Under the pieces are notes generated by a model. The model had not been told where the DNA came from and made no database searches. It worked only from the letters and a program-made list of their open reading frames with translations. 32,000 nucleotides of DNA, from NCBI RefSeq assembly GCF_051097895.1, contig NZ_CP142525.1, positions 330,001 to 362,000 of the forward strand, in the 5' to 3' direction. The stretch is from Psychrobacter sp. HD31. GTDB taxonomy: Bacteria; Pseudomonadota; Gammaproteobacteria; Pseudomonadales; Moraxellaceae. The translations under genes were made by a program, and so were the position numbers. Positions within the stretch are counted from its first letter, which is position 1; every line of letters starts with the position of its first letter. Shown here piece after piece: positions 2,057 to 23,022 of the stretch.

Positions 2057-3739
2057 ATGCAACTCCTTTGGTTTAAACGAGACTTACGATTAGTTGACCA
2101 CCCAGCACTGGTACGGGCGGTTAAGGCTCGTGCGAGTAATCCATCAAAACATGGTGAGGTTTTGCCCGTTTATATTTTTGAACCAGAACTTTGGCGACAG
2201 CCTGATATGAGCCATCGGCATTATGTATTTTTGTATGAATGTTTGACCGACTTGTATCGGTCGCTTAAAGCGATTGGTTGCCCTCTAGTGGTCAAGGTTG
2301 GCGATGCGATTGAGGTGTTGGAGGCATTGCATCAAAAATATGACGTGACAGCACTTTGGTCACACCAAGAAACATGGAACGGTTGGACATTTGAGCGGGA
2401 TAAACGTATCGCAAGCTGGGCAAAGGCTCGACAGATTGTCTGGTATGAGCCCTTACAATATGGTGTGTTTCGGCGGATTGACCGAATGCAAGGTCGAGAC
2501 CATTGGTCAAAGCTATGGTATGAAAAAATGAATGCCAATGTATTGCCTGCACCCCTTAGTTTAACCATGATTGATGAGCCCTCAGATGTTTTGCCAACAC
2601 CAGAAATGCTGGGTTTGGTTGCTAGTTCAGTTGACGGCATGTCAGATAAAAACCATACTGATGACAAAAACAGTGATGAGTTTGTCCCTAATGAGTTTAG
2701 GATTAATGATGACTGTCGCCAGCTTGGTGGTCGAGAGCATGGGTTAGCAACACTACAGAGCTTTTTGACATACCGAGGAGAGCGTTATACTAAGCAAATG
2801 TCATCACCTGTAACAGCGTTTGACAGTTGTTCTCGTTTGTCGCCATATTTGGCTTTTGGGGTGCTGTCGATGCGTGAGGTGTTTGTGGCGTATAAGGCAA
2901 AAAATGAGGAAATAAAAAATCGCCCTAAACAGGATAGAAGAGCTTGGGGTGGTGCCATGAGGTCGTTTTCAGCCCGCTTACGCTGGCATTGCCATTTTAT
3001 ACAAAAGCTTGAATCTGAACCAGAGATGGAGTTTTATAACTTACACCCTGTGTATGATGGATTGCGAGAGCATGAGTTTAATGAAGCGTACTTTAAGGCA
3101 TGGCAAACGGGGCATACAGGTTACCCAATGATAGACGCCTGTATGCGTGCTTTGATAGCGACAGGATGGATTAATTTTCGTATGCGGGCGATGCTGATGA
3201 GTTTTGCCAGTTATCATTTGTGGTTACACTGGCGACGACCTGCATTACACTTGGCTCGGTTATTTGTGGATTATGAACCAGGCATTCACTATAGCCAAGC
3301 TCAAATGCAATCTGGTACAACGGGAATTAACAGTATTCGAGTATATAATCCAATTAAGCAAGGAGTGGACCAAGACCCTGAAGGTGTATTTATCAAGCGT
3401 TGGATTCCTGAGCTTGCTAATATGCCAACTGAGTTTATTCATACGCCTTGGTTATGTGCCGATGATTTAATATTAGGTATTGAAGCGATGAACGGATATC
3501 CCATGCCCATCGTCGATGAAAAAACAGCGAGAAGACAAGCAACCGATAAGCTATCTGCCATCCGTAAGCATCACGTCCATGGTCATATTGCAAAACAGAT
3601 TGTACAGAAGCATGCGAGTCGCAAGGTTAGTTCAAACCACAAGGGTAGCTCAAAAAAGAAGAATAAGGTCAAAAAACCCAGAGGTGTAAGTGAAAATGCA
3701 ACAAGCACTACAGATGATGTTCAGTTGGGTTTATTTTAA
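2057..3739 (+). CDS. Cryptochrome/photolyase family protein, atypical clade (not class I PhrB-like, not DASH), with a Lys-rich C-terminal tail
   Basis: The N-terminus 'LLWFKRDLRLVDHPAL' matches the photolyase alpha/beta domain. The FAD-binding helical domain shows 'SRLSPYLAFGVLSMREV', 'GYPMIDACMRALIATGWINFRMRAMLMSF' and 'DYEPGIHYSQAQMQSG'. The tail is 'KGSSKKKNKVKKPRG'. Confidence 0.9.
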   Translation: MQLLWFKRDLRLVDHPALVRAVKARASNPSKHGEVLPVYIFEPELWRQPDMSHRHYVFLYECLTDLYRSLKAIGCPLVVKVGDAIEVLEALHQKYDVTALWSHQETWNGWTFERDKRIASWAKARQIVWYEPLQYGVFRRIDRMQGRDHWSKLWYEKMNANVLPAPLSLTMIDEPSDVLPTPEMLGLVASSVDGMSDKNHTDDKNSDEFVPNEFRINDDCRQLGGREHGLATLQSFLTYRGERYTKQMSSPVTAFDSCSRLSPYLAFGVLSMREVFVAYKAKNEEIKNRPKQDRRAWGGAMRSFSARLRWHCHFIQKLESEPEMEFYNLHPVYDGLREHEFNEAYFKAWQTGHTGYPMIDACMRALIATGWINFRMRAMLMSFASYHLWLHWRRPALHLARLFVDYEPGIHYSQAQMQSGTTGINSIRVYNPIKQGVDQDPEGVFIKRWIPELANMPTEFIHTPWLCADDLILGIEAMNGYPMPIVDEKTARRQATDKLSAIRKHHVHGHIAKQIVQKHASRKVSSNHKGSSKKKNKVKKPRGVSENATSTTDDVQLGLF

Positions 3740-3896: not shown

Positions 3897-4187
3897 CTAA
3901 GCGTCGAGAATTGCATCCAAATTCTTCTCAATCTGTTCTTTAATCTTTGGCAAAAAGCTTTTAAACAAAAAACCTAACTTGGCGTTCATCTCAAATTTAT
4001 CTGCGGTACTGATGAACACGCCTTCTACGCCTGAGCGTTTAAATTGTACAACATCTTGGTCATCGTTACGTTCCAGTGAACAAGTCATCCGATAGTCTTT
4101 TTTGGCAGATACTATCCAGTCATCAGTAATCTTTCGGGCTTTTTCTAAGCCAAGCGTGTGTTGACGCAAAATGTGTAAGTCACTCAT
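3897..4187 (-). CDS. Polyhydroxyalkanoic-acid-system family small protein (PHA_gran_rgn-like)
   Basis: The 96-aa ORF has the pattern 'H.L....A......W.......Y...C.W......F.RSGV.G......D.F...AKLGFL...' that I recall for this family. Its ATG overlaps the TetR stop by 4 nt (ATGA at 4184-4187). Confidence 0.7.
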   Translation of the reverse strand: MSDLHILRQHTLGLEKARKITDDWIVSAKKDYRMTCSLERNDDQDVVQFKRSGVEGVFISTADKFEMNAKLGFLFKSFLPKIKEQIEKNLDAILDA

Positions 4188-4798
4188 GATTTACTCCCAA
4201 TTCCCTCAAAGCAGGTTGTGGTTACCATCTCAATTATCTTTTCGTCATCATACATGCCACTGGATTTCAAAAACCCTAATACAGGATCACAGGATCTGGC
4301 ATATAGAGTATAGAGAATACAAAGTGGCTCAACATTGGTGGTGATATTACCTATGGCTTGGGCTTGTTCTATCCATTCTCCAAGTGAGTCTGACATGGTC
4401 ACTAACATATCCATGTAATTTTCATGTGCCATTAGATGCTCACGCAGAGAGGAGTTTTCGCTAGGCAGATTGGGCATTTGCTGGTTTAGCTTGAGTCGCA
4501 TTGCCCATTGAGTAACGATTTTAAGCTTTTCAAAGGCACTTTTATCACCATGATTAAGGACAGTTATTTGCTTCAATCCTGTTTTCATAATGTCAACCAA
4601 TGCCCCAACTGCCAATGCTTCTTTACTAGGAAAGTGTCTGTATAAAGATGCTTTAGCAATACCAACGCTATCAGCAATCTCATCAACCGTCATGGCATCA
4701 TAGCCTTTGGTGGCAAGTAGGTTATTAACGGTTTCGATAATGAGTTTTTCGCGCTCTATCATCATTTTTTGTTTGAAAGTGAGTTTTTTTTCAGTCAT
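4184..4798 (-). CDS. TetR/AcrR family transcriptional regulator
   Basis: The HTH signature is 'MTVDEIADSVGIAKASLYRHFPSKEAL'. I prefer the ATG at 4798 ('MTEKKLTF...') over the track's GTG at 4873, whose extra 25 residues look non-native. The exact start is uncertain. Confidence 0.85.
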   Translation of the reverse strand: MTEKKLTFKQKMMIEREKLIIETVNNLLATKGYDAMTVDEIADSVGIAKASLYRHFPSKEALAVGALVDIMKTGLKQITVLNHGDKSAFEKLKIVTQWAMRLKLNQQMPNLPSENSSLREHLMAHENYMDMLVTMSDSLGEWIEQAQAIGNITTNVEPLCILYTLYARSCDPVLGFLKSSGMYDDEKIIEMVTTTCFEGIGSKS

Positions 4799-4894
4799 CA
4801 GGAGTGATTCCAAGTTTTCATAACACATTACCATTGATTGGTTGTTGTATGAGTAGATTATACCCAAAAGCACGAAATATTACCAATTTGTATA

Positions 4895-4916
4895 TTTTAT
4901 ACTAATTAGTATAAAA
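4895..4916. promoter_or_regulatory. Perfect 22-bp palindrome TTTTATACTAATTAGTATAAAA, candidate TetR operator
   Basis: The sequence is identical to its reverse complement. It lies in the divergent intergenic region about 97 nt upstream of the TetR ATG (4798) and just left of a sigma70-like promoter facing the fasciclin gene. Confidence 0.55.
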
Positions 4917-5149: not shown

Positions 5150-5734
5150 ATGACAGTTACAAGAAGTGTTACCAAACTAACAACAATGGCTACCGCTGTA
5201 TTAGCAACTATGGCGTTAAGTGCCTGTATGACTAGCCCAAGCCACTCAAATCACACAGAAAAATCACATGCACAGCACCATAGTAGTCATGCTGATGCTA
5301 GTAATCACAATAAAATGATGGCAAAAAATTTAGTACAAGTTGCTCAATCTGATGAAAACTTCAGTATTTTGGTTGAAGCAGTTGTAGCCGCAGGGTTAGT
5401 TGATACATTGGCAAATACGCCAAACTTAACTGTATTTGCACCAACAGACCAAGCATTTGCTAACCTGCTGGGTGAACTTGGTATGACTAAAGCAGAACTA
5501 TTGGCTAACAAACCACTATTGACCCAAGTGCTGACTTATCATGTTATTCCTGCAAAAGTATATTCACATCAAGTAAAACCAGGGAATTTAACAACGGTTC
5601 AAGGCAAACAGTTTAGCTTTGGTGCCGAAGGGAAGATTACCGATGCTCGTGGCAGAATGGCAAACTTAGTTGCCACTGATATTAAAGCCAGCAATGGTGT
5701 AATTCATGTAATTGATAAGGTTATATTGCCTTAA
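5150..5734 (+). CDS. Fasciclin (FAS1) domain lipoprotein with a His-rich linker
   Basis: The signal peptide ends in the lipobox 'LSAC'. A His-rich stretch 'SHSNHTEKSHAQHHSSHADASNHN' follows. FAS1 motifs are 'LTVFAPTDQAF', 'LTYHVIP' and 'NGVIHVIDKVILP'. SD-like AAGGA lies upstream. Confidence 0.88.
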   Translation: MTVTRSVTKLTTMATAVLATMALSACMTSPSHSNHTEKSHAQHHSSHADASNHNKMMAKNLVQVAQSDENFSILVEAVVAAGLVDTLANTPNLTVFAPTDQAFANLLGELGMTKAELLANKPLLTQVLTYHVIPAKVYSHQVKPGNLTTVQGKQFSFGAEGKITDARGRMANLVATDIKASNGVIHVIDKVILP

Positions 5735-5776
5735 GATTGATGTTTTTTTAGCATTAATTAAGTATACACAATGATT

Positions 5777-5814
5777 GCAAATTGTTGAGCCAAGCTTAGC
5801 AATTTGTGTTTTTT
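5777..5814 (+). terminator. Rho-independent terminator candidate after the fasciclin gene
   Basis: The GCAAATTG ... CAATTTGT stem (one G-U pair) flanks a loop of about 14 nt and is followed by TGTTTTTT. Confidence 0.55.
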
Positions 5815-5847: not shown

Positions 5848-6453
5848 ATGACATCAATACCAAAAAAATTGCTTAAAATTTTAGTCTTCGTTGCTACTTC
5901 GAGTTTGTTTATTTCTTGCTCAACTTTAGTAAGCAATAAAAAAACTAGTAATAGTTTACAAACGACAGTTACAAACGTTGATTTAGACGACTATCAAGGT
6001 ACATGGTATGAGATAGCACGCTTGCCAATGTATTTTCAGCGAAATTGTCGTAGGGATGTCACTGCCACTTATCGCAAACGTGCCGATGGCACAATTAAGG
6101 TCACCAATAAATGTATTGATAAGCGTGGTAATCAGATGGTTGCCAACGGTGTAGCAAGCGCTGATGCAAACTATCCTGATGCCAAGAATAGCCGTTTGTT
6201 AGTCAGTTTTTTGCCTAAGTCATTACAGTGGTTACCTGTGGGTAAAGGTGGCTATTGGATATTAGCATTAGATACTGATGCAAAGACAGGCAACTATAAT
6301 CATGTGCTGATAGGCTCACCCAGCCGTAAGTATCTATGGATATTGTCACGCACGCCTAATATGTCTGAAGTAGATTATCAACGATATGTGGCTATCGCCA
6401 AAGCACAAGGCTACGAGTTAGATAAATTGATTCGGACAACACACAGTGACTAG
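5848..6453 (+). CDS. blc: Outer-membrane lipoprotein Blc (bacterial lipocalin)
   Basis: The lipobox is 'FISC'. The lipocalin signatures 'YQGTWYEIARLP' and 'YLWILSRTP' closely match my memory of E. coli Blc. Confidence 0.92.
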   Translation: MTSIPKKLLKILVFVATSSLFISCSTLVSNKKTSNSLQTTVTNVDLDDYQGTWYEIARLPMYFQRNCRRDVTATYRKRADGTIKVTNKCIDKRGNQMVANGVASADANYPDAKNSRLLVSFLPKSLQWLPVGKGGYWILALDTDAKTGNYNHVLIGSPSRKYLWILSRTPNMSEVDYQRYVAIAKAQGYELDKLIRTTHSD

Positions 6454-6615
6454 TAATTAATAACCAGTCAATAAAAGTAATCAAGAATAAGCAACAAGTG
6501 ATAAGTAAAGCAAAACCTAACCAGTAATTGAACCAGTCAAACGTTACGATATTTAATAAACGATATGACTTACAATTACTTAACAAACCAATACTTAGTA
6601 ACAAGTGAGCGACAA

Positions 6616-7431
6616 ATGACCAAACGTATTCTTATTACGGGTGCAACTTCAGGCATTGGTTACCAATTGGTGATTGATTACCTAAATGCGGGTCATTATG
6701 TTTATGCAGTGGGTAGAAACCAAACTGTTTTGCAGCAACTAAAACAGCTCGGGGCTATGATTATCATTGCTGATTTAACCGACCGAAATCAGGCAATTGA
6801 CTCAATACAAAATATGTTGCAACAAACACCATTGGATGTGGTGATATGTTGTGCAGGCATTTGTCAGTATGTTGATATCACTCATATCAATTCTACTCAT
6901 ACTACTAATAGTAGTAACAGTGCCAGTCAAACTATCAATACAATGTCCTCAGCTTCATCAGAGTTATTAGGGTTTGATAGTGCTAAGATAATGGACGTGA
7001 TGAATACCAATTTTGGTACGTTGGTACATACCATTGAAGCAGTATTGCCTTATTTACAGCAATCAAAAGGACGATTGGTTGCACTGGGTTCAGCATCGGC
7101 ATTTGTACCCTTTGTTCGTGCTGAAGCATATGCCAGCTCTAAATCAGCGGTGCATTATCTGATTAAAACCTTACAACTGAGCCTAAAGCCATATGATATA
7201 GACGTGAGTTTGGTGATACCAGGATTTGTTGATACGCCAATGACGGCTCAAAATGATTTTGACATGCCATTTTTGCAGACAGTAGAACAAGCAAGCCAAG
7301 CGATTAGAAAAGGTATCGAAAATGGTGAGGATGTGATTGAGTTTCCAAAAAGGTTGACTGTTCCCTTAAAAACACTTGGCATGTTACCCAATGTAGTTTG
7401 GGAGCGTGTATCGGATAGGTTGAATAAATAA
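6616..7431 (+). CDS. SDR family oxidoreductase (first gene of the lipid-modification operon)
   Basis: The motifs are 'ILITGATSGIGYQL' (TGxxxGxG) and 'YASSKSAVHYL' (YxxxK). I prefer the ATG at 6616 to the track start at 6565. An S/T/N-rich insertion 'HINSTHTTNSSNSASQTINTMSSASS' is present. Confidence 0.85.
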   Translation: MTKRILITGATSGIGYQLVIDYLNAGHYVYAVGRNQTVLQQLKQLGAMIIIADLTDRNQAIDSIQNMLQQTPLDVVICCAGICQYVDITHINSTHTTNSSNSASQTINTMSSASSELLGFDSAKIMDVMNTNFGTLVHTIEAVLPYLQQSKGRLVALGSASAFVPFVRAEAYASSKSAVHYLIKTLQLSLKPYDIDVSLVIPGFVDTPMTAQNDFDMPFLQTVEQASQAIRKGIENGEDVIEFPKRLTVPLKTLGMLPNVVWERVSDRLNK

Positions 7432-7443
7432 TTGAGAATATGC

Positions 7444-9180
7444 ATGAGCAATATAGCAAAAACGACAAACTCATCTAAAAAACGTATCGCCATCATTGGT
7501 TCGGGCATATCAGGGTTAACTTGTGCGCATTATTTGGTAAAAGACCATGATGTCACCATCTTTGAAGCCAATGAGTATTTGGGTGGACATGTGAATACCA
7601 TAGATGTGGAGATTGCTGATACCGTTGGACGGTTTAAAAAGAGCACACACATAGAAACCTCTGCGATTGATACAGGGTTTATTGTGTTTAACGAACGCAC
7701 TTATCCCAATTTTTTTCGCTTGCTTGATGAACTGAATGTCGCATTTCAAAAAACGGACATGAGCTTTTCGGTTAAGAATCCTACTATTAACTTTGAGTAC
7801 AATGGTCATACATTAAACAGTCTGGTATCACAGCGTAAAAATATCTTGAGTCCGTCTTTTTGGCGATTTGCAACAGATATTCTGAGTTTCAATAAGCATA
7901 TCAAACAGCTTAGGCAATCTTATCAACAGCTTGAGCAAACTATACAAGAATTAACCACACAAGTTGCCAACACTAACAGCAAGCGTAAAGTTAAAAATTT
8001 AACCAAGCAACTGACTGCTAAACAAGCAAAGCTAGATGGTTTGTCATCTCAAACACTTGGCGATTATCTAGCCACACAAAAATATGGCAAGTTGTTTGAA
8101 GATAATTATTTGTTGCCAATGGTATCAGCGATTTGGTCGATGGGTCTTGAGGATAGCAAATCTTTTCCACTGATATTTTTTGCTCAGTTTTTTGATAATC
8201 ATGGATTGCTAGATGTGGTTAATCGTCCGCAATGGTTTACGATTCAAGGTGGCTCTAAACAGTATGTCAATAAATTGGTAAAACGCTATGCCAAGATGGG
8301 AGGCAAGGCATTGGTCAATTCACCTGTGCAGTCGGTACAGCGTATGACAGACGGAGTTAGCATTGCTTATCAAGTGAATCAAAACATGGATATTGGCAAG
8401 AACATCAACACGGACTCGGTAGGAAAAGCAACCAAAACTGCTAAGTTTGATGAAGTGATATTTGCCTGTCATGCTGATGTGGCAAAGCGTCTATTAACTG
8501 ATATTAGTGAGCAGGAACAACAGGTATTAGAGGCGTTTAACTTTACGGATAACCAAGCCATTTTGCATACAGATACCAGTGTACTACCAAATAAACCACT
8601 GGCATGGGCGAGCTGGAACTATTTGTTAAACGACTCTTCGAGCAAAGCTAAGATAACTGACGATACAAAAGTAATTGAAGAAACGCATTGTGGTAACTTT
8701 AAACCAGTGCTGACTTATCACATGAATATTTTACAACGACTGGTTAAAAAGCATAACTATTTGGTGACATTAAACGAGCCTGTCAATGAATTACAAGTGA
8801 TTAAACATATTGATTATCGTCATCCTGTATATGATGTCAATATGACCATGGCTCAAAAACGTTGGGAGTATATCTCAGGCGATGCTTCTGTTAATCAGAG
8901 TACGCACTTTGCGGGTGCTTATTGGTTTAACGGTTTTCATGAAGATGGTGTTCGTAGTGCATTACGTGTGTGTGCAAGTCTAGGTGTGAATGTTGATATT
9001 TTGGATAAGGTAGACCCAAGCCATCTAAACAATACGATTGAACCACATCCAATATTCACTTATAAAAATATACCTAGTAAAGCGCATAAAAATAAGGGTG
9101 GCAAAAACCGTGCTAAACTAAATAAACGTCAAGTGCAATCAGCAACGACGAATACCCAGCTAAACCAACTGTTTAGTTAA
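7444..9180 (+). CDS. NAD(P)/FAD-dependent oxidoreductase, amine-oxidase-like (COG2907-type; the family I recall for the UfaD desaturase)
   Basis: The dinucleotide fold is 'RIAIIGSGISGLTCAHYL ... FEANEYLGGH'. Gene order SDR-flavoprotein-DUF1365-CFA-like is typical. The ATG at 7444 is preferred; a TTG at 7432 abuts the SDR stop. It carries a coiled-coil-like insertion and a basic C-terminal tail. Confidence 0.85.
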   Translation: MSNIAKTTNSSKKRIAIIGSGISGLTCAHYLVKDHDVTIFEANEYLGGHVNTIDVEIADTVGRFKKSTHIETSAIDTGFIVFNERTYPNFFRLLDELNVAFQKTDMSFSVKNPTINFEYNGHTLNSLVSQRKNILSPSFWRFATDILSFNKHIKQLRQSYQQLEQTIQELTTQVANTNSKRKVKNLTKQLTAKQAKLDGLSSQTLGDYLATQKYGKLFEDNYLLPMVSAIWSMGLEDSKSFPLIFFAQFFDNHGLLDVVNRPQWFTIQGGSKQYVNKLVKRYAKMGGKALVNSPVQSVQRMTDGVSIAYQVNQNMDIGKNINTDSVGKATKTAKFDEVIFACHADVAKRLLTDISEQEQQVLEAFNFTDNQAILHTDTSVLPNKPLAWASWNYLLNDSSSKAKITDDTKVIEETHCGNFKPVLTYHMNILQRLVKKHNYLVTLNEPVNELQVIKHIDYRHPVYDVNMTMAQKRWEYISGDASVNQSTHFAGAYWFNGFHEDGVRSALRVCASLGVNVDILDKVDPSHLNNTIEPHPIFTYKNIPSKAHKNKGGKNRAKLNKRQVQSATTNTQLNQLFS

Positions 9181-9288
9181 GAACAGTAGCTAAAGAATAA
9201 CAGTATTTAAAGCACTGCTGGCTCACGCATAACGAGAAAAACTAACGGTTTAGTATTTTTGTCAATTTACAATTTTTAAGGATATAAC

Positions 9289-9771
9289 ATGACAGATACC
9301 ATTTATCAATTTAATGCAGACACCTTAACAGGTCAAAACAAAGATTTTAGCGAGTATGCAGGCAAGGTGTTGCTTATTGTTAATACTGCCAGCAAATGTG
9401 GCTTAACGCCTCAATACGAGGGTTTAGAGCAATTACATAAAGACTATCACGACAAAGGACTGGAAGTCATTGGCTTTCCGTGCAATCAATTTGGTCACCA
9501 AGAACCAGGTGATGCAGGTGAAATCACAGAATTTTGCCAACTTAACTATGGTGTCAGCTTTCAGATGATGGATAAAATTGATGTTAATGGTGACAATGCC
9601 CACCCAATTTACAAATGGTTAAAATCCCAAAAAGGTGGATTAATAACCGACGCCATTAAGTGGAACTTTGGTAAATTTTTGGTTGGAAAAGATGGCAAAG
9701 TAGTCAAACGCTATGCACCTACTACCAAGCCAGAAGCCATTGCCAGTGACATTAAAAAGCTGCTTGGCTAA
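9289..9771 (+). CDS. gpx: Glutathione peroxidase (Cys-type)
   Basis: Motifs are 'LIVNTASKCGLTPQY' (peroxidatic Cys), 'GFPCNQFGHQEPG' and 'WNFGKFLV'. SD AAGGA lies 7 nt upstream. Confidence 0.93.
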   Translation: MTDTIYQFNADTLTGQNKDFSEYAGKVLLIVNTASKCGLTPQYEGLEQLHKDYHDKGLEVIGFPCNQFGHQEPGDAGEITEFCQLNYGVSFQMMDKIDVNGDNAHPIYKWLKSQKGGLITDAIKWNFGKFLVGKDGKVVKRYAPTTKPEAIASDIKKLLG

Positions 9772-9798
9772 GTTTTTATCTTAAAAGTATTGAAAACA

Positions 9799-10749
9799 AT
9801 GAAGCCTTTTATCCCCCACCAAATCTTAACAGGTACAACATGGCACGCTCGTCATATGCCTGCTAAGCATAGCTTTAGCTATCCGTATCGCTATTGGGGG
9901 CTAAGTTTAAAACGGTTGGCAAATGGCGATTTTCCACCAGATAGTCATGGTGACAAACTTAAAATAGTTGGTAAGTTGTTTTCTACTCATAAGCGAGCTT
10001 TACATAACTTTGATTTTGCCGATTACTTTGATATCAATAAGCTTGATGAGAGTAATGTAGATAATGCTAAGTATCTAAAGCAGTCCTTAGAATTTTCAGA
10101 CACTCTGCACAAGTGGGATAACAAACAAGGAATAAATCAAGAAGCTAACCAAGAAAAAGCGAAACACTGGTTAGATACGGTGAATCAAGAGTTTATTCGA
10201 CTAACAGGTAGCCAGCCAACAGGGGATATCTTGGCATTGGTGGTCAGTCGAAATTTGGGAGTTTATTTTAGCCCTGTCAATTTTTATATTGGGTTTGATA
10301 AAGCGGGTAATGCCAGTCACCTATTGGCAGAGGTATCAAATACGCCGTGGAATAAACGTCATTTTTATGGTTTTTTGTTAACAGGTAATGATAGTGAATT
10401 TAGTCATAACAAAGACTTTCATGTATCACCATTTAACCCGTTAGACCAAACTTACACATGGAAAGTAAAAGTTTCTGCCCCTAAAGAGAGCTATTTAAAA
10501 AATATCAAACTTAGCATTCATGTTTCGGATGAGCGAGGCAAGGTATTTGAAGCGGGCATTAATATGAAGTCCATGCCGATGACCTCACAAAACTTACGAC
10601 ATACCATTAAACAAAACCCAGTGATGAACTATAGCTCAATGGTTCGGATATATTGGCATGCGTTTCGACTGTATGTAATGAAAAAAGTGCCCTATGTTGG
10701 ATATAACCAAAAGCTAAAAGAGAGCGGGCAAGCAACTTTTAAAAAATAG
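9799..10749 (+). CDS. DUF1365 family protein (the family I recall for UfaO)
   Basis: The N-terminus 'GTTWHARHMPAKHSFSYPYRYWGLSL' fits the DUF1365 pattern H.R..P..H.F.Y. Its position between the flavoprotein and the CFA-synthase-like gene also fits. Start is ATG 9799 or TTG 9790. Confidence 0.82.
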   Translation: MKPFIPHQILTGTTWHARHMPAKHSFSYPYRYWGLSLKRLANGDFPPDSHGDKLKIVGKLFSTHKRALHNFDFADYFDINKLDESNVDNAKYLKQSLEFSDTLHKWDNKQGINQEANQEKAKHWLDTVNQEFIRLTGSQPTGDILALVVSRNLGVYFSPVNFYIGFDKAGNASHLLAEVSNTPWNKRHFYGFLLTGNDSEFSHNKDFHVSPFNPLDQTYTWKVKVSAPKESYLKNIKLSIHVSDERGKVFEAGINMKSMPMTSQNLRHTIKQNPVMNYSSMVRIYWHAFRLYVMKKVPYVGYNQKLKESGQATFKK

Positions 10750-10813
10750 ACAGTAATGAATAGCCAATAGTGCATAGCAAACCGTACATTTAAGAGAAAT
10801 AAGGAGAGGTACA

Positions 10814-12184
10814 ATGTTCAGAAAAAATACCGAACTCGATATTAGCGCATCGACTGCCAGCCAATTACCGACTGACCGCCATACCTCTACTGCTCAATCG
10901 CTGATTGGTGGCAAGCTTTCTAGTGTTCTAAGCCCTGTCAAAAAAGGGGTTGACCTTACCAGCAAACGCCTTGTGTTTAAGGGATTGTCATATTTGCAAT
11001 TTGGCAGTATCACGCTGATAGAAAATTATGGTAAGAAACCTAAAACTCATCTTTTTGGGGAGGGTAATTTAAATGATAGCCAAAGTAAAAAAAATGGAGA
11101 AATTGCTGGTTCACACCCTTTGCATGTGACCTTAACCGTGCATAATCCAAATTTTTATCGACAGTTGATAACAGGTGGGGATATTGCTTTAGCCGATAGT
11201 TATATTGATGGTGAGTGGGAAGCCGATGACCTAACAGCATTAATCCGACTGGCTGCTCGCAATATCAACGTCATGAAGCAACTGCAAAGTAAGTTATCTT
11301 TGCTAACTAAATCCGTTGAATTTAAAAAACATAAAGCCCGTTCAAACACGGTAAGCAAAGCGAAGTCGAATATTCTTGCTCATTATGACCTTGGCAATGA
11401 CATGTATCAAACATTTTTGGATAAGACCATGATGTATTCATCAGCGATTTATCCAACACCAAATACACCATTGCCCGAAGCGCAACAGACTAAGCTAAAA
11501 ACCTTATGTGATATGTTAGAACTCACGCCTGACGACCATTTACTAGAAATTGGGACAGGTTGGGGTGGTTTGGCGATTTTTGCAGTGCAAAACTATGGTT
11601 GTCAAGTGACCACAACCACCATATCTGATGCTCAGTATGATGAGGCAAAACAGCGAGTAGAGCAGGCGGGACTCACGGATAAAATCACCTTGTTAAAAGA
11701 AGACTACCGTAAGCTAACAGGTCAATATGACAAGCTTATTAGTATTGAGATGGTTGAAGCAGTTGGACATGAATATTTACCAACGTTTTTTGCCAAATGC
11801 AATGCGCTGCTAAAACCAAAAGGAATCATGGCGATGCAGGCAATTACCTTTAACGACCAAGGGTATGAAGACTACCTAAACTCGGTGGACTTTATCCAAT
11901 CGCATATTTTCCCTGGTGGTTGTCTGCTATCTAATCAAGAAATCATCAATCAGTTTACTGAGCAAACCGACATGGTGGTAAAGTCGTTGATTGATTATGG
12001 CTATGACTATGCATACACCTTACGGGACTGGCGGCATGCTTTTATGAATCGTTTGGATGATATCCGAGCGATGGGCTATGACGATAAGTTTATCCGCTTA
12101 TGGCAATTTTATTTTGCGTATTCTGAAGGTGGGTTTTTGGAACGAACCATTGGGGTTGTGCAGGTAAAGGCGATTAAAGAATAG
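10814..12184 (+). CDS. Cyclopropane-fatty-acyl-phospholipid synthase family SAM-dependent methyltransferase
   Basis: The SAM motif is 'LLEIGTGWGGLA'. Also present are 'ISIEMVEAVGHEY', 'IFPGG' and 'FYFAYSEGGF'. A strong SD AAGGAGAGG lies upstream. Confidence 0.9.
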   Translation: MFRKNTELDISASTASQLPTDRHTSTAQSLIGGKLSSVLSPVKKGVDLTSKRLVFKGLSYLQFGSITLIENYGKKPKTHLFGEGNLNDSQSKKNGEIAGSHPLHVTLTVHNPNFYRQLITGGDIALADSYIDGEWEADDLTALIRLAARNINVMKQLQSKLSLLTKSVEFKKHKARSNTVSKAKSNILAHYDLGNDMYQTFLDKTMMYSSAIYPTPNTPLPEAQQTKLKTLCDMLELTPDDHLLEIGTGWGGLAIFAVQNYGCQVTTTTISDAQYDEAKQRVEQAGLTDKITLLKEDYRKLTGQYDKLISIEMVEAVGHEYLPTFFAKCNALLKPKGIMAMQAITFNDQGYEDYLNSVDFIQSHIFPGGCLLSNQEIINQFTEQTDMVVKSLIDYGYDYAYTLRDWRHAFMNRLDDIRAMGYDDKFIRLWQFYFAYSEGGFLERTIGVVQVKAIKE

Positions 12185-12228
12185 ATAGTTTGTGTTAGTA
12201 AATATAATTATATGAAAGCGAGAATAAT

Positions 12229-12645
12229 ATGAATCTAGCATATATATGGGTGTACCTGACTGCGGCGACAGTTTTTGTTGTAGTTGATGGTATTTGGCTA
12301 AAAACCATGACCCAGGCGTTTTATCATCCACGCATTGGGCATCTACTCACAGATACGCCAAATATGCTGGCAGCAGCCATGTTTTATCTGTTTTATATCT
12401 TTGCTTTGTGCGTACTGATTATCTATCCACAAGTTAAAGCTCAAGCCCCGCTATGGCAACTGTTTGCTTTAGGGGGATTGATTGGGCTAATGGCATATGG
12501 CACTTATGACTTTACCGCATTGGCACTGTTAAAAGACTATAGCACCTCAGCAGCTTTGGTTGACTTTGTTTGGGGTGGGTTTGTTACAGGGACGGTAGCC
12601 GTAGCTGCCGGCTGGTTAAGTTACCAGTTTGGATGGTTGCAGTAG
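12229..12645 (+). CDS. DUF2177 family membrane protein
   Basis: It is a 138-aa protein with 4 hydrophobic segments. The N-terminus 'VVVDGIWLKTM' resembles DUF2177. It sits in the usual last position of this operon type. Confidence 0.78.
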   Translation: MNLAYIWVYLTAATVFVVVDGIWLKTMTQAFYHPRIGHLLTDTPNMLAAAMFYLFYIFALCVLIIYPQVKAQAPLWQLFALGGLIGLMAYGTYDFTALALLKDYSTSAALVDFVWGGFVTGTVAVAAGWLSYQFGWLQ

Positions 12646-12684
12646 ATAAGACTCACGATAATATAAAGAAAGTTAACTAAAATA

Positions 12685-12720
12685 ATAAGAAACGATATGA
12701 TCGTTTCTTATTTATTATTT
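12685..12720 (+). terminator. Rho-independent terminator candidate after the lipid-modification operon
   Basis: A perfect stem AATAAGAAACGAT / ATCGTTTCTTATT surrounds a 3-nt loop (ATG). A U-rich but A-interrupted tail TTATTATTTATT follows. Confidence 0.6.
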
Positions 12721-12879: not shown

Positions 12880-13323
12880 ATGAATCAAAATTTAAAGTTA
12901 TTTCAATCAATGGGCGCAGATGCTTTTTCACAAGCTGTTGTTAATATTGCACCTTATTTTTCTAGTATAGATCCGCAAGTAGTGGATTTAAGAAAAGGAT
13001 ACTGTGAAGTTTTTTTAAAAAAACAACAAAAAGTTTTAAACCATTTGGGTACTGTACATGCGATTGCAATGTGTAATGCTGCTGAGCTGGTTGGTGGAAT
13101 GGCAACAGATGTTTCTATTCCTGAAGGTGCACGCTGGATTCCTCAAGGGATGACAGTTAAATATCTAGCAAAAGCAAAAACAGACTTAACTGTGGTGTGT
13201 GATGCAAATGATATTGACTTTTCACAAGAAGGCGAGATTGTTGTGCATATTGATGCAACTGATGAAGAAGGTACAGTTTGCTTTACTGCTGATATTAATA
13301 TGAATGTTAAACATGAATCATAA
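12880..13323 (+). CDS. Hotdog-fold thioesterase-like protein (DUF4442 / PaaI-YiiD_C-like)
   Basis: The 147-aa ORF has 'NHLGTVHAIAMCNAAELVGG' and 'GMTVKYLAKAKTDL', typical of DUF4442 hotdog proteins. SD AAGGAG lies upstream. Confidence 0.78.
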   Translation: MNQNLKLFQSMGADAFSQAVVNIAPYFSSIDPQVVDLRKGYCEVFLKKQQKVLNHLGTVHAIAMCNAAELVGGMATDVSIPEGARWIPQGMTVKYLAKAKTDLTVVCDANDIDFSQEGEIVVHIDATDEEGTVCFTADINMNVKHES

Positions 13324-13482: not shown

Positions 13483-13953
13483 ATGCAAACAGAAGAACTC
13501 AATCCCCTTAACCTTACTAGCAAAAAAAGTAGACATCAAGATAAACGTCTTTTCTTTTTATTCAATATGGCACGCCATCATTTATTTGGCTATGTAGATG
13601 CCGAATGTGATGCACAATTGGGTATTTCGGTTACACAGGCTGGTGCTTTACTCTATATTGCAAAAAAAGAAGGGTGTTATCAAAAAGATTTGGGTGATGC
13701 TTTGGGCTTAAAAAAATCAACAGTCACCGGGTTAGTGTCTCGAATGGAAAAAAATGGCTTGGTTAAACGTAAAGCGTGTAAACAAGATGGTAGGGCATCA
13801 ACATTATTTTTAAGTCAACTTGGTAATGAAATAATCCCACGAATCATACTTTTTATTAAATCTATTAATGATGAGTTTTTATCAGATTTTAGCGATGAAG
13901 AAATGGATGTGATTTTTAAATTTTTAAATAGAATAATAAAAAAATACTCATAA
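13483..13953 (+). CDS. MarR family transcriptional regulator
   Basis: The winged-HTH is 'QKDLGDALGLKKSTVTGLVSRMEKNGLVKRK...DGRAS'. Confidence 0.88.
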   Translation: MQTEELNPLNLTSKKSRHQDKRLFFLFNMARHHLFGYVDAECDAQLGISVTQAGALLYIAKKEGCYQKDLGDALGLKKSTVTGLVSRMEKNGLVKRKACKQDGRASTLFLSQLGNEIIPRIILFIKSINDEFLSDFSDEEMDVIFKFLNRIIKKYS

Positions 13954-14484: not shown

Positions 14485-14671
14485 TATTGTTCCTAAATGT
14501 TGATGGTTATATAGTTCTTTGATTAAGGCTACCCAAACCAATTATAAAATGTTACTATCTAGTATAATAATTAACTAATAAGTATTCAATTGCTTGTTGT
14601 ATTAAAACTTAAAGAATATAAAGTGAATAATAACAAGGTTATCATTAGATAAGTCGAATAAGGACCCCCAT

Positions 14672-16297
14672 ATGTCGGAAGCTACGTCCTCGGATACACA
14701 TTCCTTATTTTATAAACGCAAAATCAGCCTTATCTTTCCACATCAGCTGTTTGCTGATGTTAGTCTATGGCAAGATGAATGCTACTTAATAGAAGAAAAT
14801 CTATTTTTTACCCTTTATCCCTTTCATAAACAAAAGCTTGTCTTGCATCGTGCCAGCATGAAAGTCTATGAAAAAAAGCTGATAGAAGCAGGTAAAACCG
14901 TCATTTATATTGATTCAAGCCACAAACACAGCGATTGTCGAAAATTAATCAATAGCTTTGAAATAAAACATGTCGATGACCCTGAACACATCCATTTGAT
15001 TCATTATATTGATGTAGTAGATGATTGGCTGCGTATGCGATTGCAACAAGCATTACTTACAAAAAATATTCGTTTTCGTCCTGCACCAAGTCCCATGTTT
15101 TTAAATCCAATATCGGTATATTGGCAGTTTTTTGCCCCAGATATGAGCCATATAAACCATGTAGACACAGCGAGTAAACCTGTTCAAAAACAACTATTTC
15201 ATCATAATTTTTATATCCAAGCTCGCAAGCGTGAAAGAATTTTATTAACAGAAGACAATAAGCCCATTGGCGGGCAATGGTCGTTTGATGCCGAAAACCG
15301 TAAAAAATACCCACGCAAGCAAACACCGCCCAAAGTCAATTTTCCACCAGTGACAGAGCATTACCAAAATGCAGTGGCGTATATTCAAACCAACTTTGCC
15401 AATCATTATGGCAACATCAATACTGACTTTCGTTATCCTATTAATCATGAGCAAGCAGAACAGTGGTTTGAAGACTTTTTACGTACTCGATTTGCTGACT
15501 TTGGCGTGTATGAAGATGCCATTGTCGATAGTGAAAGCATACTCAACCACAGTGTACTAACACCCATGCTAAACATTGGCTTACTGACACCTGAGCAAGT
15601 TATCAATCGCACATTAGAGGTTGCAGAAGAATATCAGATACCACTAAATTCGCTTGAAGGATTTGTTCGTCAGATTATTGGTTGGCGTGAATTTATGTAT
15701 GGTTTATATGAGTCGGTGGGTAGGCAACAACGCACCACCAATTTTTGGGGCTTTACTCGCAAAATCCCGAAAAGTTTTTATACAGGACAGACGGGTATTG
15801 AACCGATTGATAGCACCATCAAAAAAATTCTTGAAACGGGTTATTGCCACCATATCGAACGCTTGATGGTATTGGGCAATTTTATGTTGTTATGCGAGTT
15901 TGACCCAGATGAGGTGTACCGTTGGTTTATGGAGCTGTTTGTTGATGCCTATGATTGGGTAATGGTACCTAATGTGTATGGTATGAGCCAGTTTGCCGAC
16001 GGTGGTCTAATGGCGACTAAGCCGTATATCAGTGGCAGTAACTACCTTGCGAAGATGAGTAATTATCAAGTTAAATCAAAAGGCGAGTCTGTGGCATGGG
16101 CAAAAACATGGGATGGACTGTTTTGGCGATTTATGCAGGAGCAAAGAGAGTTTTTTGGACAAAACCCTCGCATTGGGATGTTACTAACCCTGTGGGATAA
16201 GATGGATGATAGAAAGCAACAAGCACATTTACAGCAGGCTGAACAGTTTCTAGCAAAATTAGATGCAGAGTTAAGTACTGAACTAAATACAAAATAG
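14672..16297 (+). CDS. Cryptochrome/photolyase family protein of the COG3046 (FeS-BCP / bacterial (6-4) photolyase PhrB-CryB) type, lacking Fe-S ligand cysteines
   Basis: Motifs are 'LIFPHQLF', 'GWREFMYG', 'GYCHHIERLMVLGNF', 'DAYDWVMVPNVYGMSQFADGG' and 'KPYISGSNYLAKMSNY'. SD AAGGA lies upstream. Confidence 0.9.
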   Translation: MSEATSSDTHSLFYKRKISLIFPHQLFADVSLWQDECYLIEENLFFTLYPFHKQKLVLHRASMKVYEKKLIEAGKTVIYIDSSHKHSDCRKLINSFEIKHVDDPEHIHLIHYIDVVDDWLRMRLQQALLTKNIRFRPAPSPMFLNPISVYWQFFAPDMSHINHVDTASKPVQKQLFHHNFYIQARKRERILLTEDNKPIGGQWSFDAENRKKYPRKQTPPKVNFPPVTEHYQNAVAYIQTNFANHYGNINTDFRYPINHEQAEQWFEDFLRTRFADFGVYEDAIVDSESILNHSVLTPMLNIGLLTPEQVINRTLEVAEEYQIPLNSLEGFVRQIIGWREFMYGLYESVGRQQRTTNFWGFTRKIPKSFYTGQTGIEPIDSTIKKILETGYCHHIERLMVLGNFMLLCEFDPDEVYRWFMELFVDAYDWVMVPNVYGMSQFADGGLMATKPYISGSNYLAKMSNYQVKSKGESVAWAKTWDGLFWRFMQEQREFFGQNPRIGMLLTLWDKMDDRKQQAHLQQAEQFLAKLDAELSTELNTK

Positions 16298-17615: not shown

Positions 17616-17789
17616 ATGATGAAAAAATCAGGCAGTAATAAGACCATCAAAAAATCTAATTTACCCAGTAAAGTTTGTCCTGTTTGTAAACGCCCCTTCA
17701 CATGGCGTAAAAAATGGCAAAACAATTGGGACGAGGTCGTTTATTGCTCCAAACGCTGTTCGGGTAATAAGCAAGCCATTCATCCATAA
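17616..17789 (+). CDS. DUF2256 zinc-ribbon-like small protein (57 aa; not in the supplied ORF track)
   Basis: I translated it by hand as [57 protein letters not shown]. The 'CPVC..PF.WRKKW...WD.V.YCS.RC' pattern matches DUF2256, a family I recall as frequently adjacent to photolyase genes. Confidence 0.8.
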
Positions 17790-17874: not shown

Positions 17875-19332
17875 ATGACCATCTCAAAGTCTAATAAAAC
17901 CATCGGCATGGTCATACTCCATAATGACTTACGCATACATGACAATGCCACTTTGCTAAAAGCATCAACGGTATGCGACAGTTTGCTGATTGTGTATCCA
18001 AAACAAAAGCTGTTTTTGCCCACTCAAAACCGAGGGCAAGAATTTCATGCCAGCCAACATGAAAAAATGGGCAAAGCAAGGGCATGGTTTTTATTGCAAA
18101 GCTTGTCAAACCTTGACAAATCGCTACAACAGCTTGGCAATGGGTTGCTATATCTTGATGCAGAGAAAGCAGGCGTGACAACCTTTAATCAGATTAAAAC
18201 ATTGATTAACGAGTTTAATGTTGGGCATGTTTTTGTCAGTAGTACGGCAGATTATGACCAAAATCAGGGCTACCGTTTACTTGCACAGAACACCAATACT
18301 CAGTGGTATTACGCCACTACTCACAGTATTTATGAGACACGACCAACAGAAACGTTGCCAAAAGTGTTTACTGAGTTTCGTAAATTGGTAGAAAAATCGC
18401 ATCCCTGTTTGACAGCGAAAAATGATTTACTAATTTCGCCCACCCCAAGCGTGTTACCCAGTATGCCAGTGATGGCGGCTAACTATCTAAAAAGTGTGCA
18501 ATTGCCCAAGATTTTGGATGTCGCTAATTCGGATTTCGATAATGCAGATATTGCTGAGCTTGCTGATAATCAATCGATAACATCGCCTTTTATTGGAGGC
18601 GAACATCAAGCATTGGCACATTTACAAAGCTATTTTCAGTCGGATGCTCCGAAAACTTATAAAGAAACCCGCAATACCTTATTTTTAAACGATGATACGA
18701 CAACGCAAGCGTCATGGTCACAGACAACACGCTTTGCACCTTGGCTTGCCAATGGGTCGCTATCCGTACGAGTGTTACTCAACCGATTAAGGCAGTATGA
18801 GCGTGAAAAAGTGGCGAACGATTCGACTTATTGGATTTGGTTTGAACTACTTTGGCGAGAGTATTTTTATTGGTATGCCAATACGCACGGTAAAAAGCTG
18901 TTTCGTATGCGTGGCATAAGTGGCAAACCCTCTCGCAAGTGCTTTTATGGCGAACGCTACGAACGTTGGAAAAATGGCAGTACCCCTTATCCAATTGTGA
19001 ATGCTTGTATGAAGCAATTAAAAGCCACTGGCTATATGTCTAACCGTGGGCGACAGCTCGTTGCCAGCTGTTTTATTCATGAGCTTGGTTTGGATTGGCG
19101 GTATGGCGCAAGTTATTTTGAACAACAGCTGATTGATTATGATGTGGCGAGTAATTGGGGCAATTGGCAATATTTAGCAGGCGTGGGAGCAGACCCACGA
19201 GGCTCTCGTAAATTTAATCTTGATAAGCAAACGCAACAGTATGACCCAGAGGGTAAGTTCATTAAAAAATGGGGCGGTAATGACGATGCCACTGTGCTTG
19301 ATAGTGTGGACATGGTGGACTGGTATGTTTAA
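17875..19332 (+). CDS. Cryptochrome DASH
   Basis: Motifs are 'TRFAPWLANGSLSVR', 'WFELLWREYFYW', 'YPIVNACMKQLKATGYMSNRGRQLVASCF' and 'DYDVASNWGNWQYLAGVG'. Confidence 0.92.
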   Translation: MTISKSNKTIGMVILHNDLRIHDNATLLKASTVCDSLLIVYPKQKLFLPTQNRGQEFHASQHEKMGKARAWFLLQSLSNLDKSLQQLGNGLLYLDAEKAGVTTFNQIKTLINEFNVGHVFVSSTADYDQNQGYRLLAQNTNTQWYYATTHSIYETRPTETLPKVFTEFRKLVEKSHPCLTAKNDLLISPTPSVLPSMPVMAANYLKSVQLPKILDVANSDFDNADIAELADNQSITSPFIGGEHQALAHLQSYFQSDAPKTYKETRNTLFLNDDTTTQASWSQTTRFAPWLANGSLSVRVLLNRLRQYEREKVANDSTYWIWFELLWREYFYWYANTHGKKLFRMRGISGKPSRKCFYGERYERWKNGSTPYPIVNACMKQLKATGYMSNRGRQLVASCFIHELGLDWRYGASYFEQQLIDYDVASNWGNWQYLAGVGADPRGSRKFNLDKQTQQYDPEGKFIKKWGGNDDATVLDSVDMVDWYV

Positions 19333-19384
19333 TTATGTTGAATTAAAGTGCTAAATTTGCATATTGAATGAGGATATAAAAATA

Positions 19385-19852
19385 ATGAAAAAGACGGCAA
19401 CAACGCAAAAAATATTATTCCCTTATTTAACCTTGGCAGGGGCAACTCCGTTTATTGTCTGTATGTTTTTACTGCTCTTTGGCTTAAACCATCTGCCATA
19501 TTTGGGAGAAACGACTCAAGTATTAAGGGGGTACGGCATACTTATCGCTTCATTTATGTTGGGTAGCCAATGGGGGAGTCACTTAAGCCTATCAGAAAAT
19601 AATCCATGGTTACTTCGATTGCCTATTTTTACCAATATCATGGCAGTTTTACTATGGTTGGCATATTTGGTTTTATCTGTTGATGTCTTTTTATTGCTTT
19701 TATCTGTATGTTTTTTAGCAATTTTATTTATTGATTACCACCTAAAGCAAGCCAAAATAATTGGGCGAAATTATTATCGCATTCGAGTAATAGTAACAAT
19801 GATTGTGGTTGCATCATTACTTGTGAGTGCTTTAACACTTTTTTTATTTTAA
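19385..19852 (+). CDS. DUF3429 family membrane protein
   Basis: It has four hydrophobic segments and 'YGILIASFMLGSQWG', matching the DUF3429 signature (YG..I.SF.GG..WG). The ATG at 19385 has GAGGA upstream; the track uses a TTG at 19364. Confidence 0.8.
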   Translation: MKKTATTQKILFPYLTLAGATPFIVCMFLLLFGLNHLPYLGETTQVLRGYGILIASFMLGSQWGSHLSLSENNPWLLRLPIFTNIMAVLLWLAYLVLSVDVFLLLLSVCFLAILFIDYHLKQAKIIGRNYYRIRVIVTMIVVASLLVSALTLFLF

Positions 19853-19898
19853 TCGTTTGTACTTAATTTTAGAAATTTGAATTCTCTAGGAAACTATT

Positions 19899-21062: not shown

Positions 21063-21087
21063 CTGATAATAGAGGAATCTGTTCGTT

Positions 21088-23006: not shown

Positions 23007-23022
23007 AGTAGTTCCTAAAACA

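Follow-up and report, generated by a model that had tools for sequence, protein, structure and literature searches.

A probable ufa-type furan fatty acid gene cluster of Psychrobacter sp. HD31 with an inserted glutathione peroxidase gene and a neighboring lipocalin gene

Furan fatty acids (FuFAs) are rare membrane antioxidants, and the bacterial pathway that makes them was solved only in 2014-2020. Here we describe a ufa-like gene cluster in a 32,000-nucleotide stretch of the genome of Psychrobacter sp. HD31 (contig NZ_CP142525.1, positions 330,001 to 362,000; hereafter the window), in which a glutathione peroxidase (Gpx) gene lies between the predicted FuFA genes. In the described pathway, UfaM, a methylase of the cyclopropane fatty acid (CFA) synthase family, converts cis-vaccenate into 11Me-12t-18:1. 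UfaD (RSP1091), an FAD/NAD-binding, phytoene-desaturase-like desaturase with O2 as its presumed electron acceptor, then gives the conjugated 11Me-10t,12t-18:2, and UfaO (RSP1090), a DUF1365 protein, forms the furan ring with O2 (Lemke 2020, PMC7380195). UfaO required no added reductant in vitro, and its reductant was noted as unknown in the same study. The contiguous R. palustris genes RPA2571-2570-2569 (ufaD-ufaO-ufaM) were necessary and sufficient, and deletion of the gene for RSP1087, a short-chain dehydrogenase/reductase (SDR), left the fatty acids of R. sphaeroides unaffected, showing that it is dispensable for FuFA synthesis (Lemke 2020, PMC7380195). The three ufa genes are also consecutive in Halomonas sp. 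YLGW01, whose methyltransferase yielded 11-methyl-octadec-12-enoate in E. coli (PMC12089945). The characterised UfaM enzymes were assayed on cis-vaccenate (PMC7380195, PMC12089945).

We read the region in the window, with a probability of roughly 0.65, as the form that the conserved ufa cluster of the photo-oxidative stress response of bacteria takes in Moraxellaceae, with a Gpx and a Blc-like lipocalin recruited into it. The genes were identified from the list of open reading frames (ORFs) together with a Pfam scan, and their coordinates, which are positions within the window, are given in Table 1. A preliminary description of this DNA had listed six same-strand genes with short gaps, for an SDR, an amine-oxidase-like flavoprotein, Gpx, a DUF1365 protein, a CMAS-family methyltransferase and a DUF2177 protein, with Blc immediately upstream on the same strand and a hairpin terminator at 12685. 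All of these features were found at the places it gave, with agreement between the ORFs and the Pfam families, and its SDR start at 6616 turned out to be an inner ATG of a longer ORF. The intergenic gaps from Blc to DUF2177 are 111, 12, 108, 27, 64 and 44 nucleotides, and no terminator-like site was detected on the + strand in any of the six. The DUF1365 start that gives a protein of 316 amino acids is the one used in database cluster P0001. The G+C content is even over the region, at about 0.38-0.40, and among named organisms the closest matches are to Psychrobacter proteins (DUF1365 44-48% identical, Gpx about 70%), which places the strain within Moraxellaceae but outside the Psychrobacter species sampled.

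The preliminary description had named UfaM as a CFA-synthase-family methylase and UfaD as a flavoprotein desaturase and had placed UfaO in the DUF1365 family, in line with the published pathway (Lemke 2020, PMC7380195). Its assignment of the flavoprotein and the DUF1365 protein to the UfaD and UfaO families was borne out by their matches to PF01593/PF13450 and PF07103 and by the conservation of the triad. To place the cluster among its relatives, 90 loci were collected from contigs encoding protein-search matches, from annotated plasmids and chromids and from GTDB species genomes scanned with an alignment of DUF1365 proteins. Each locus was scored by tblastn with two sets of queries, the window proteins and proteins characteristic of other clusters. 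The genes for the flavoprotein, the DUF1365 protein and the CMAS-family methyltransferase are adjacent in 90/90 loci, and hence the gene order is non-random. In each of these loci the protein directly upstream of DUF1365 is 32-67% identical to the window flavoprotein, whose nearest solved structure is LkcE. In an alignment of 10 gamma- and alphaproteobacterial homologues, the window DUF1365 protein keeps 21/21 invariant columns, including the K-x-F-H-V-S-P-F motif. No solved structure of the DUF1365 family was found by sequence search. The AlphaFold2 model of the window protein (pLDDT 79, pTM 0.82) shows a domain rich in beta structure into which helices are inserted. A fold search with this model found no PDB neighbor at E <= 0.001, giving only weak matches to avidin-, lipocalin- and FABP-like barrels, and the model offers no hint of a cofactor. 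The GTDB scan returned gammaproteobacterial loci and loci of metagenome-assembled genomes (MAGs) only; Rhodobacter and Rhodopseudomonas loci were absent from it and from the plasmid tblastn, and the nearest alphaproteobacterial proxies were ChrR-linked loci in Ensifer and Azospirillum (23-39% identity). These sequence comparisons support the earlier identification of the genes as ufa genes.

At the level of protein family and gene order, the window resembles the Ufa pathway of R. sphaeroides and R. palustris. The same three families are present, the ufaD-ufaO-ufaM order is that of RPA2571-2569 and of Halomonas sp. YLGW01, and the unit includes an SDR gene, like that for RSP1087 in R. sphaeroides; the window SDR matches RSP1087 by both family and position. 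In contrast to R. sphaeroides, the sigmaE-ChrR regulator and promoter are missing, and the window has Blc and DUF2177 whereas R. sphaeroides has a GPH-family symporter and a hypothetical protein (RSP1089/1088). RSP1089 had been considered as a second CMAS protein, which was dropped because a review of R. sphaeroides and R. capsulatus lists it as a GPH-family symporter. The Gpx gene between ufaD and ufaO and the large protein insertions are also on the window side, and the likely substrate is oleate in place of the cis-vaccenate of the Rhodobacter and Rhodopseudomonas pathway.

The SDR-flavoprotein-DUF1365-CMAS core is likewise shared with the photolyase-linked cluster of gammaproteobacteria (for example V. 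cholerae VC1118-VC1122 and S. oneidensis SO_3386-SO_3374), whose layout is MerR or sigmaE-ChrR, DUF1722, phrB, NTF2, SDR, FAD oxidoreductase, DUF1365, a cfa-like gene, DUF2878, a chalcone-isomerase-like gene and DUF3833. Homologues in that cluster are induced by light or singlet oxygen: the V. cholerae cluster (L025 in our survey) is induced by blue light, and the S. oneidensis RpoE2 regulon contains the phrB...cfa operon. Both clusters are physically linked to photolyase-family genes, although those of the window belong to transcription units of their own. Missing from the window are the NTF2, DUF2878, chalcone-isomerase-like, DUF3833, DUF1722, MerR and ChrR genes; DUF2177, Blc and Gpx are present instead. 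Among the 90 loci, an SDR gene was found in 69, an NTF2-like gene in 63, a chalcone-isomerase-like gene in 49, DUF3833 in 48, DUF1722 in 35, rpoE-chrR in 32, a photolyase gene in about 31 and MerR in 21, while DUF2177 (11/90, including Psychrobacter, Ensifer and an Eisenbacteria MAG), lipocalin (7/90) and Gpx (2/90, L003 and L087) were less frequent. The window cluster is a member of a known, very common and already described photo-oxidative-stress and FuFA cluster. Closest in organization are seven other Psychrobacter loci (L001, L004 and L011-L015), which have SDR-flavoprotein-DUF1365-CMAS-DUF2177 in the same order and the same long, insertion-bearing proteins at 47-62% identity, but no Gpx, Blc, fasciclin or TetR gene at the locus; their Gpx orthologue is elsewhere, for example beside msrB in P. 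aestuarii. Two further arrangements were seen. In L100 (820-1857) a DUF1365 gene whose product is 63% identical to that of the window has CMAS downstream and an unrelated minus-strand gene upstream, with no ufaD or Gpx there, and in L098/L099 (1318-2376) a DUF1365 gene (54% identity) stands alone beside a patatin-like phospholipase gene, without flavoprotein or CMAS genes.

The methyltransferase was compared with E. coli Cfa, whose bicarbonate-binding residues we take to be C139, E239, H266, I268 and Y317. In the alignment to 6bqc, the corresponding residues of the window enzyme are S, E, Q, I and Y, which amounts to C139S and H266Q. None of the NCBIfam Cfa equivalog models reached its cutoff with this enzyme; PRK11705, for instance, gave 255 bits where 400 are required. 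The Gln at the H266 position is shared by 90 of the 91 CMAS genes located directly after DUF1365 (the 90 loci and the window), and the sole exception, L084, is apparently frameshifted. These genes carry EMxEAVG in place of xMFEHVG, whereas most of the second CMAS copies present in some loci retain His at this position. The window methyltransferase, without two of the Cfa bicarbonate ligands, is best read as a UfaM-type enzyme, since UfaM is the methyltransferase encoded at the same place in R. palustris and Halomonas.

The best solved match of the window Gpx is yeast Hyr1/Gpx3 (3cmi, E 7e-57) over the full length, followed by plant Gpx5 and many GPX4 entries (about 1e-41). In the 3cmi alignment, the peroxidatic Cys37 (NTASKCG), the resolving Cys83 (FCQLNYG) and the catalytic Gln, Trp and Asn are all present, as in Hyr1/Gpx3, mammalian GPX4 and E. 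coli BtuE, and no signal peptide was found in the sequence. Judged by these features, the protein is a 2-Cys thiol peroxidase of the Hyr1/GPX4 type, predicted to be cytoplasmic, that uses Cys and not Sec. Monomeric 2-Cys Gpx enzymes use thioredoxin and reduce phospholipid hydroperoxides, and the window enzyme is probably thioredoxin-dependent as well. What is new compared with Hyr1, GPX4 and BtuE is its position inside a lipid-modification operon. A literature search found no Gpx inside a ufa operon and no FuFAs in Moraxellaceae.

The same position was found in metagenomic loci. In L003 and L093/L094, Gpx proteins 79-81% identical to that of the window are encoded in the identical slot between ufaD and ufaO, whereas the UfaO proteins of these loci are only 63-66% identical to window UfaO. 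L093/L094, which represent one further lineage, were found through Gpx homologues, apart from the 90-locus survey. The gene order in L003 and L093/L094 is a divergent TetR/PHA_gran_rgn pair, fasciclin, SDR, flavoprotein, Gpx and DUF1365. The Gpx start codon of L003, an ATG, overlaps the stop codon of ufaD, and among the surveyed loci a ufaD-ufaO gap of more than 300 nucleotides was seen in the window and L003 only. Since the slot is kept in L003 and L093/L094 while L100 and L098 differ, the Gpx insertion is retained within a small clade in which the cluster is otherwise changing. Elsewhere, Gpx genes were drawn into the photo-oxidative stress system independently: one is divergent from MerR in L087, one adjoins rpoE-chrR in R. 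capsulatus according to the R. sphaeroides/R. capsulatus review, and the Shewanella RpoE2 regulon includes one.

From these results the following mechanism is proposed. The substrate would be acyl chains already present in membrane phospholipids. The UfaM-type enzyme would methylate a cis-monounsaturated chain with a shift of the double bond, the UfaD-type flavoprotein would add a second, conjugated double bond with O2 as electron acceptor, and the UfaO-type DUF1365 protein would insert one atom of O2 and close the methylated furan ring. The furan could then scavenge singlet oxygen and radicals and be sacrificed in doing so. Two genes for damage control, Gpx and Blc, would have joined the transcription unit in this lineage. 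UfaD-family flavoproteins commonly release H2O2. Because O2 is the presumed electron acceptor of UfaD, and because both the furan and the conjugated diene oxidise very readily, we propose that Gpx may clear both the H2O2 from reoxidation of the UfaD flavin and the lipid hydroperoxides on diene and furan chains, so that a peroxidase co-produced with UfaD would keep both kinds of damage in check. The Blc-type lipocalin, predicted to sit in the outer membrane, may bind damaged lipids or lyso-lipids. Regulation would differ from the usual pattern, with a divergent TetR gene and a conserved palindrome nearby and no sigmaE-ChrR or MerR/LitR regulator. The coupling of furan-lipid synthesis to peroxide detoxification by Gpx and Blc, which the preliminary description had put forward, is plausible. 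It gains indirect support from the Hyr1/GPX4-like character of the Gpx, from the slot that it shares with two further lineages and from the separate recruitment of Gpx or lipocalin genes in other clusters.

Several observations weigh against this picture of a working ufa cluster with recruited damage-control genes. The Moraxellaceae Ufa proteins are only 23-38% identical to their alphaproteobacterial homologues, the window UfaD has 578 amino acids compared to about 420 elsewhere, with large lineage-specific insertions, and the window UfaO has 316 compared to about 240-260, with an insert (residues 87-136) modelled as two helices. The Blc start codon is only 40 nucleotides past the hairpin that follows the fasciclin gene, and Blc is only a candidate member of the ufa transcription unit. 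The clusters of the close relatives L100 and L098 are rearranged, relatives of the Gpx are encoded in unrelated contexts, and the membranes of the group are rich in a different unsaturated acid from the one on which UfaM was assayed. The main unsaturated acid of Psychrobacter is C18:1 w9c, and the same acid is the major fatty acid of the genus Moraxella (PMC13618153). As the main acid is C18:1 w9c and not cis-vaccenate, the product may differ, with the furan ring perhaps two carbons nearer to the carboxyl group than in 9M5-FuFA. The enzymes could thus be active on oleate-rich (delta-9) membranes but give the positional isomer 7-(3-methyl-5-heptylfuran-2-yl)heptanoate (7M7), or 7M5 from 16:1, or could stop at the methyl-branched monoene or the conjugated diene, and the insertions in the Moraxellaceae proteins are compatible with such a change. 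We consider this outcome rather unlikely, because every invariant DUF1365 residue and the UfaM-type active-site signature are retained. A shift of substrate would moreover alter the isomer and not the chemistry, since E. coli Cfa acts on delta-9 and delta-11 chains alike. An ordinary CFA synthase operon, the reading to which automatic annotation of the methyltransferase would lead, is hardly credible: although the top NCBIfam and PDB matches of the methyltransferase are CFA synthases, it falls far under the Cfa equivalog cutoffs, Ser and Gln replace the C139 and H266 ligands, and the methyltransferases at the same position in R. palustris and Halomonas produce methyl-branched trans-monoenes.

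The role of the Gpx gene can be explained in other ways as well. It may be a passenger, a housekeeping gene that landed in the cluster by rearrangement and is co-expressed with a stress operon without any specific link to furan lipids. By sequence it is an ordinary relocated gene of the housekeeping type and no special paralogue. In related genomes, orthologues at 70-85% identity are encoded in at least three unrelated contexts (85% beside pdxA, 75% beside rpoN and 70% beside msrB), and since the closest relatives of this generic Gpx lie in unrelated contexts, its placement could be incidental. The cluster is also undergoing rearrangement in near relatives, and a nearby Gpx was seen in just two of the surveyed loci, to which L093/L094 add one lineage. 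However, the slot has been retained over three lineages in which UfaO has diverged to 63-66% identity, no other protein of the cluster is as well conserved as Gpx, the Gpx start overlaps the ufaD stop in L003, and separate links of Gpx to the same stress system exist in L087, R. capsulatus and Shewanella. On this balance we regard a mere passenger as improbable. A biosynthetic role, in which Gpx would reduce a peroxide or endoperoxide intermediate of UfaO or supply the missing reductant for furan formation, was rejected as very improbable. It is suggested by the statement of Lemke et al. (PMC7380195) that the UfaO reductant is unknown and by the position of the Gpx gene 27 nucleotides upstream of ufaO. 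However, by our own stoichiometry the conversion of the diene (C19H34O2) with O2 into the furan (C19H32O3) and H2O is redox-balanced, so that a reductant is unnecessary, and UfaO was active in vitro without one (PMC7380195). Gpx is absent from 88 of the 90 surveyed clusters and from the experimentally sufficient R. palustris set, and reduction of an endoperoxide would yield a diol and not a furan. Within the preferred reading of a ufa cluster with recruited Gpx and Blc, a more speculative and rather unlikely form can be stated tentatively: delta-9 oleoyl and palmitoleoyl chains might be converted into a furan of the 7M7/7M5 type, unreported from bacteria, by a pathway that is self-protected by a GPX4-like peroxidase translationally linked to UfaD and clearing its own H2O2 and lipid hydroperoxides, with the lipocalin handling oxidised lipid.

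No ChrR, sigmaE or MerR gene was found in the 32-kb window, which has TetR and MarR genes instead. The sigmaE promoter sequence TGATCC-N-CGTA gave a single match at chance level at 25671, not upstream of the cluster, and a search for a regulatory motif common to the window promoters gave nothing convincing. The divergent TetR/PHA_gran_rgn pair is also upstream of the cluster in L003 and L093/L094, and fasciclin genes precede the cluster in these loci and in L055. A perfect palindrome, TTTTATACTAATTAGTATAAAA, is located between the TetR and fasciclin genes of the window and is probably the TetR operator. One or two related palindromes, TATACTAnnTAGTATA, are present in each TetR-fasciclin intergenic region of L003 (2669-2723), L093 (4003-4062) and L094 (3938-3997), so that all three lineages with the Gpx insertion have kept the candidate palindrome. 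The sole second match in the window was a weaker copy, GTTACTATCTAGTATA, at 14551-14566 upstream of the DPRP gene, and this count is not above chance. The conserved palindrome between the TetR and fasciclin genes points to TetR control of at least these two promoters; the ufa genes themselves follow the hairpin between fasciclin and Blc.

The ufa genes sit in a light-stress island with three photolyase or cryptochrome genes (Table 1), and a DCC1-like thiol oxidoreductase gene is also nearby. L003, the closest relative, does not have the block at about 12.7-24.8 kb; there, DUF2177 is followed by chalcone-isomerase-like and DUF3833 genes and then directly by ThiF and TatD (24887-26667 in the window). 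Other genes of the window were noted in passing. A 629-amino-acid ORF just upstream of the photolyase gene (18-1907) carries ketoreductase and phosphopantetheine-binding domains and matches type I polyketide synthases in their C-terminal part. An ORF for an SBF-family transporter and one for a Pyr_redox_3 flavoprotein overlap on the - strand where the extra block has its far edge (21990-24153); the best NCBIfam match of the flavoprotein, well under the cutoff, is the YpdA family of putative bacillithiol disulfide reductases.

The lipocalin has an N-terminal signal-like segment ending in a lipobox-like FISC. Its score on the NCBIfam Blc model was 109.7 bits against a cutoff of 267 bits, and its best solved relatives are the plant temperature-induced lipocalin 8wb2 and E. 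coli Blc, so the product is best called a Blc-like lipocalin. Acinetobacter, Ensifer, Klebsiella and four MAG loci have lipocalin genes within the cluster or next to it. The association is recurrent across unrelated taxa and is not particular to the window; L003 has no Blc. A possible analogy between Blc and DUF3833 is not claimed, as the profile-profile match covered only 23 N-terminal columns at a probability of 60%, and the comparison of DUF2878 with DUF2177 gave no match. The window SDR has 288 amino acids compared to about 245, with a low-complexity stretch rich in Ser, Asn and Thr. DUF2177 and DUF1295 are characteristic neighbors of heliorhodopsin genes (bioRxiv 10.1101/2021.02.16.431466). 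This neighborhood is a second, independent link of DUF2177 to light and membrane lipid remodelling. The two also co-occur in the ufa clusters L007 and L037. Downstream of the terminator, the extra block begins with a gene for a DUF4442 hotdog-fold protein, and in other Psychrobacter loci a 4HBT hotdog gene directly follows DUF2177.

Table 1. Features of the ufa region and its surroundings (positions within the 32,000-nucleotide window)
Feature	Position	Strand	Evidence or remark
Photolyase	2057-3739		
PHA_gran_rgn gene, downstream of TetR	3897-4187	-	PF09650, E 3e-22
TetR-family regulator, candidate local regulator, divergent from fasciclin	4184-4873	-	PF00440, E 1.3e-15
Perfect palindrome, TetR-fasciclin intergenic, probable TetR operator	4895-4916		
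Fasciclin-domain lipoprotein	5150-5734	+	PF02469, E 5.1e-31
Terminator-like hairpin between fasciclin gene and Blc	5776-5808		
Blc-like lipocalin	5848-6453	+	PF08212 Lipocalin_2, E 1.8e-45
SDR	6565-7431 (alternative inner ATG 6616)	+	PF00106, E 2e-35
UfaD-like amine-oxidase-type flavoprotein	7444-9180 (possible TTG start 7432)	+	PF01593 Amino_oxidase, E 2.5e-21; PF13450, E 5.5e-14
Gpx	9289-9771	+	PF00255 GSHPx, E 5e-45
UfaO-like DUF1365 protein	9799-10749	+	PF07103, E 2e-51, profile positions 1-232 of 235
UfaM-type CMAS-family S-adenosylmethionine methyltransferase	10814-12184	+	PF02353, E 1.4e-77
DUF2177 small membrane protein, last gene of the run	12229-12645	+	PF09945, E 2.3e-33
Terminator-like hairpin, bidirectional, ends the operon	12684-12712	both	13-bp stem, T-rich tail
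DUF4442 hotdog-fold protein, possible accessory gene, start of the extra light-stress block	12880-13323	+	PF14539, E 7.8e-47
MarR-family regulator, possible accessory gene	13483-13953	+	PF12802, E 1.3e-15
DPRP-type photolyase-related gene	14672-16297		
57-amino-acid Cys-rich ORF	17616-17789		at the position of the DUF2256 gene beside cryptochrome on an Acinetobacter plasmid
DASH cryptochrome	17875-19332		above NCBIfam cutoff
DUF3429, second FAD amine-oxidase-like protein, second SDR	19364-21810		

The core pathway is common and already described, and this locus adds little to it. The Gln in place of His266 provides a simple sequence marker for telling ufaO-linked methylases apart from true cyclopropane synthases, and it could be used to correct annotation. 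What is new here is confined to the accessory genes, namely the Gpx insertion, Blc and the TetR setting rather than a ChrR or MerR one, and the locus provides a case of a ufa cluster outside ChrR or MerR control. The recruitment of Gpx and a lipocalin amounts to a natural experiment, with which one could ask whether peroxide stress arises from FuFA synthesis itself.

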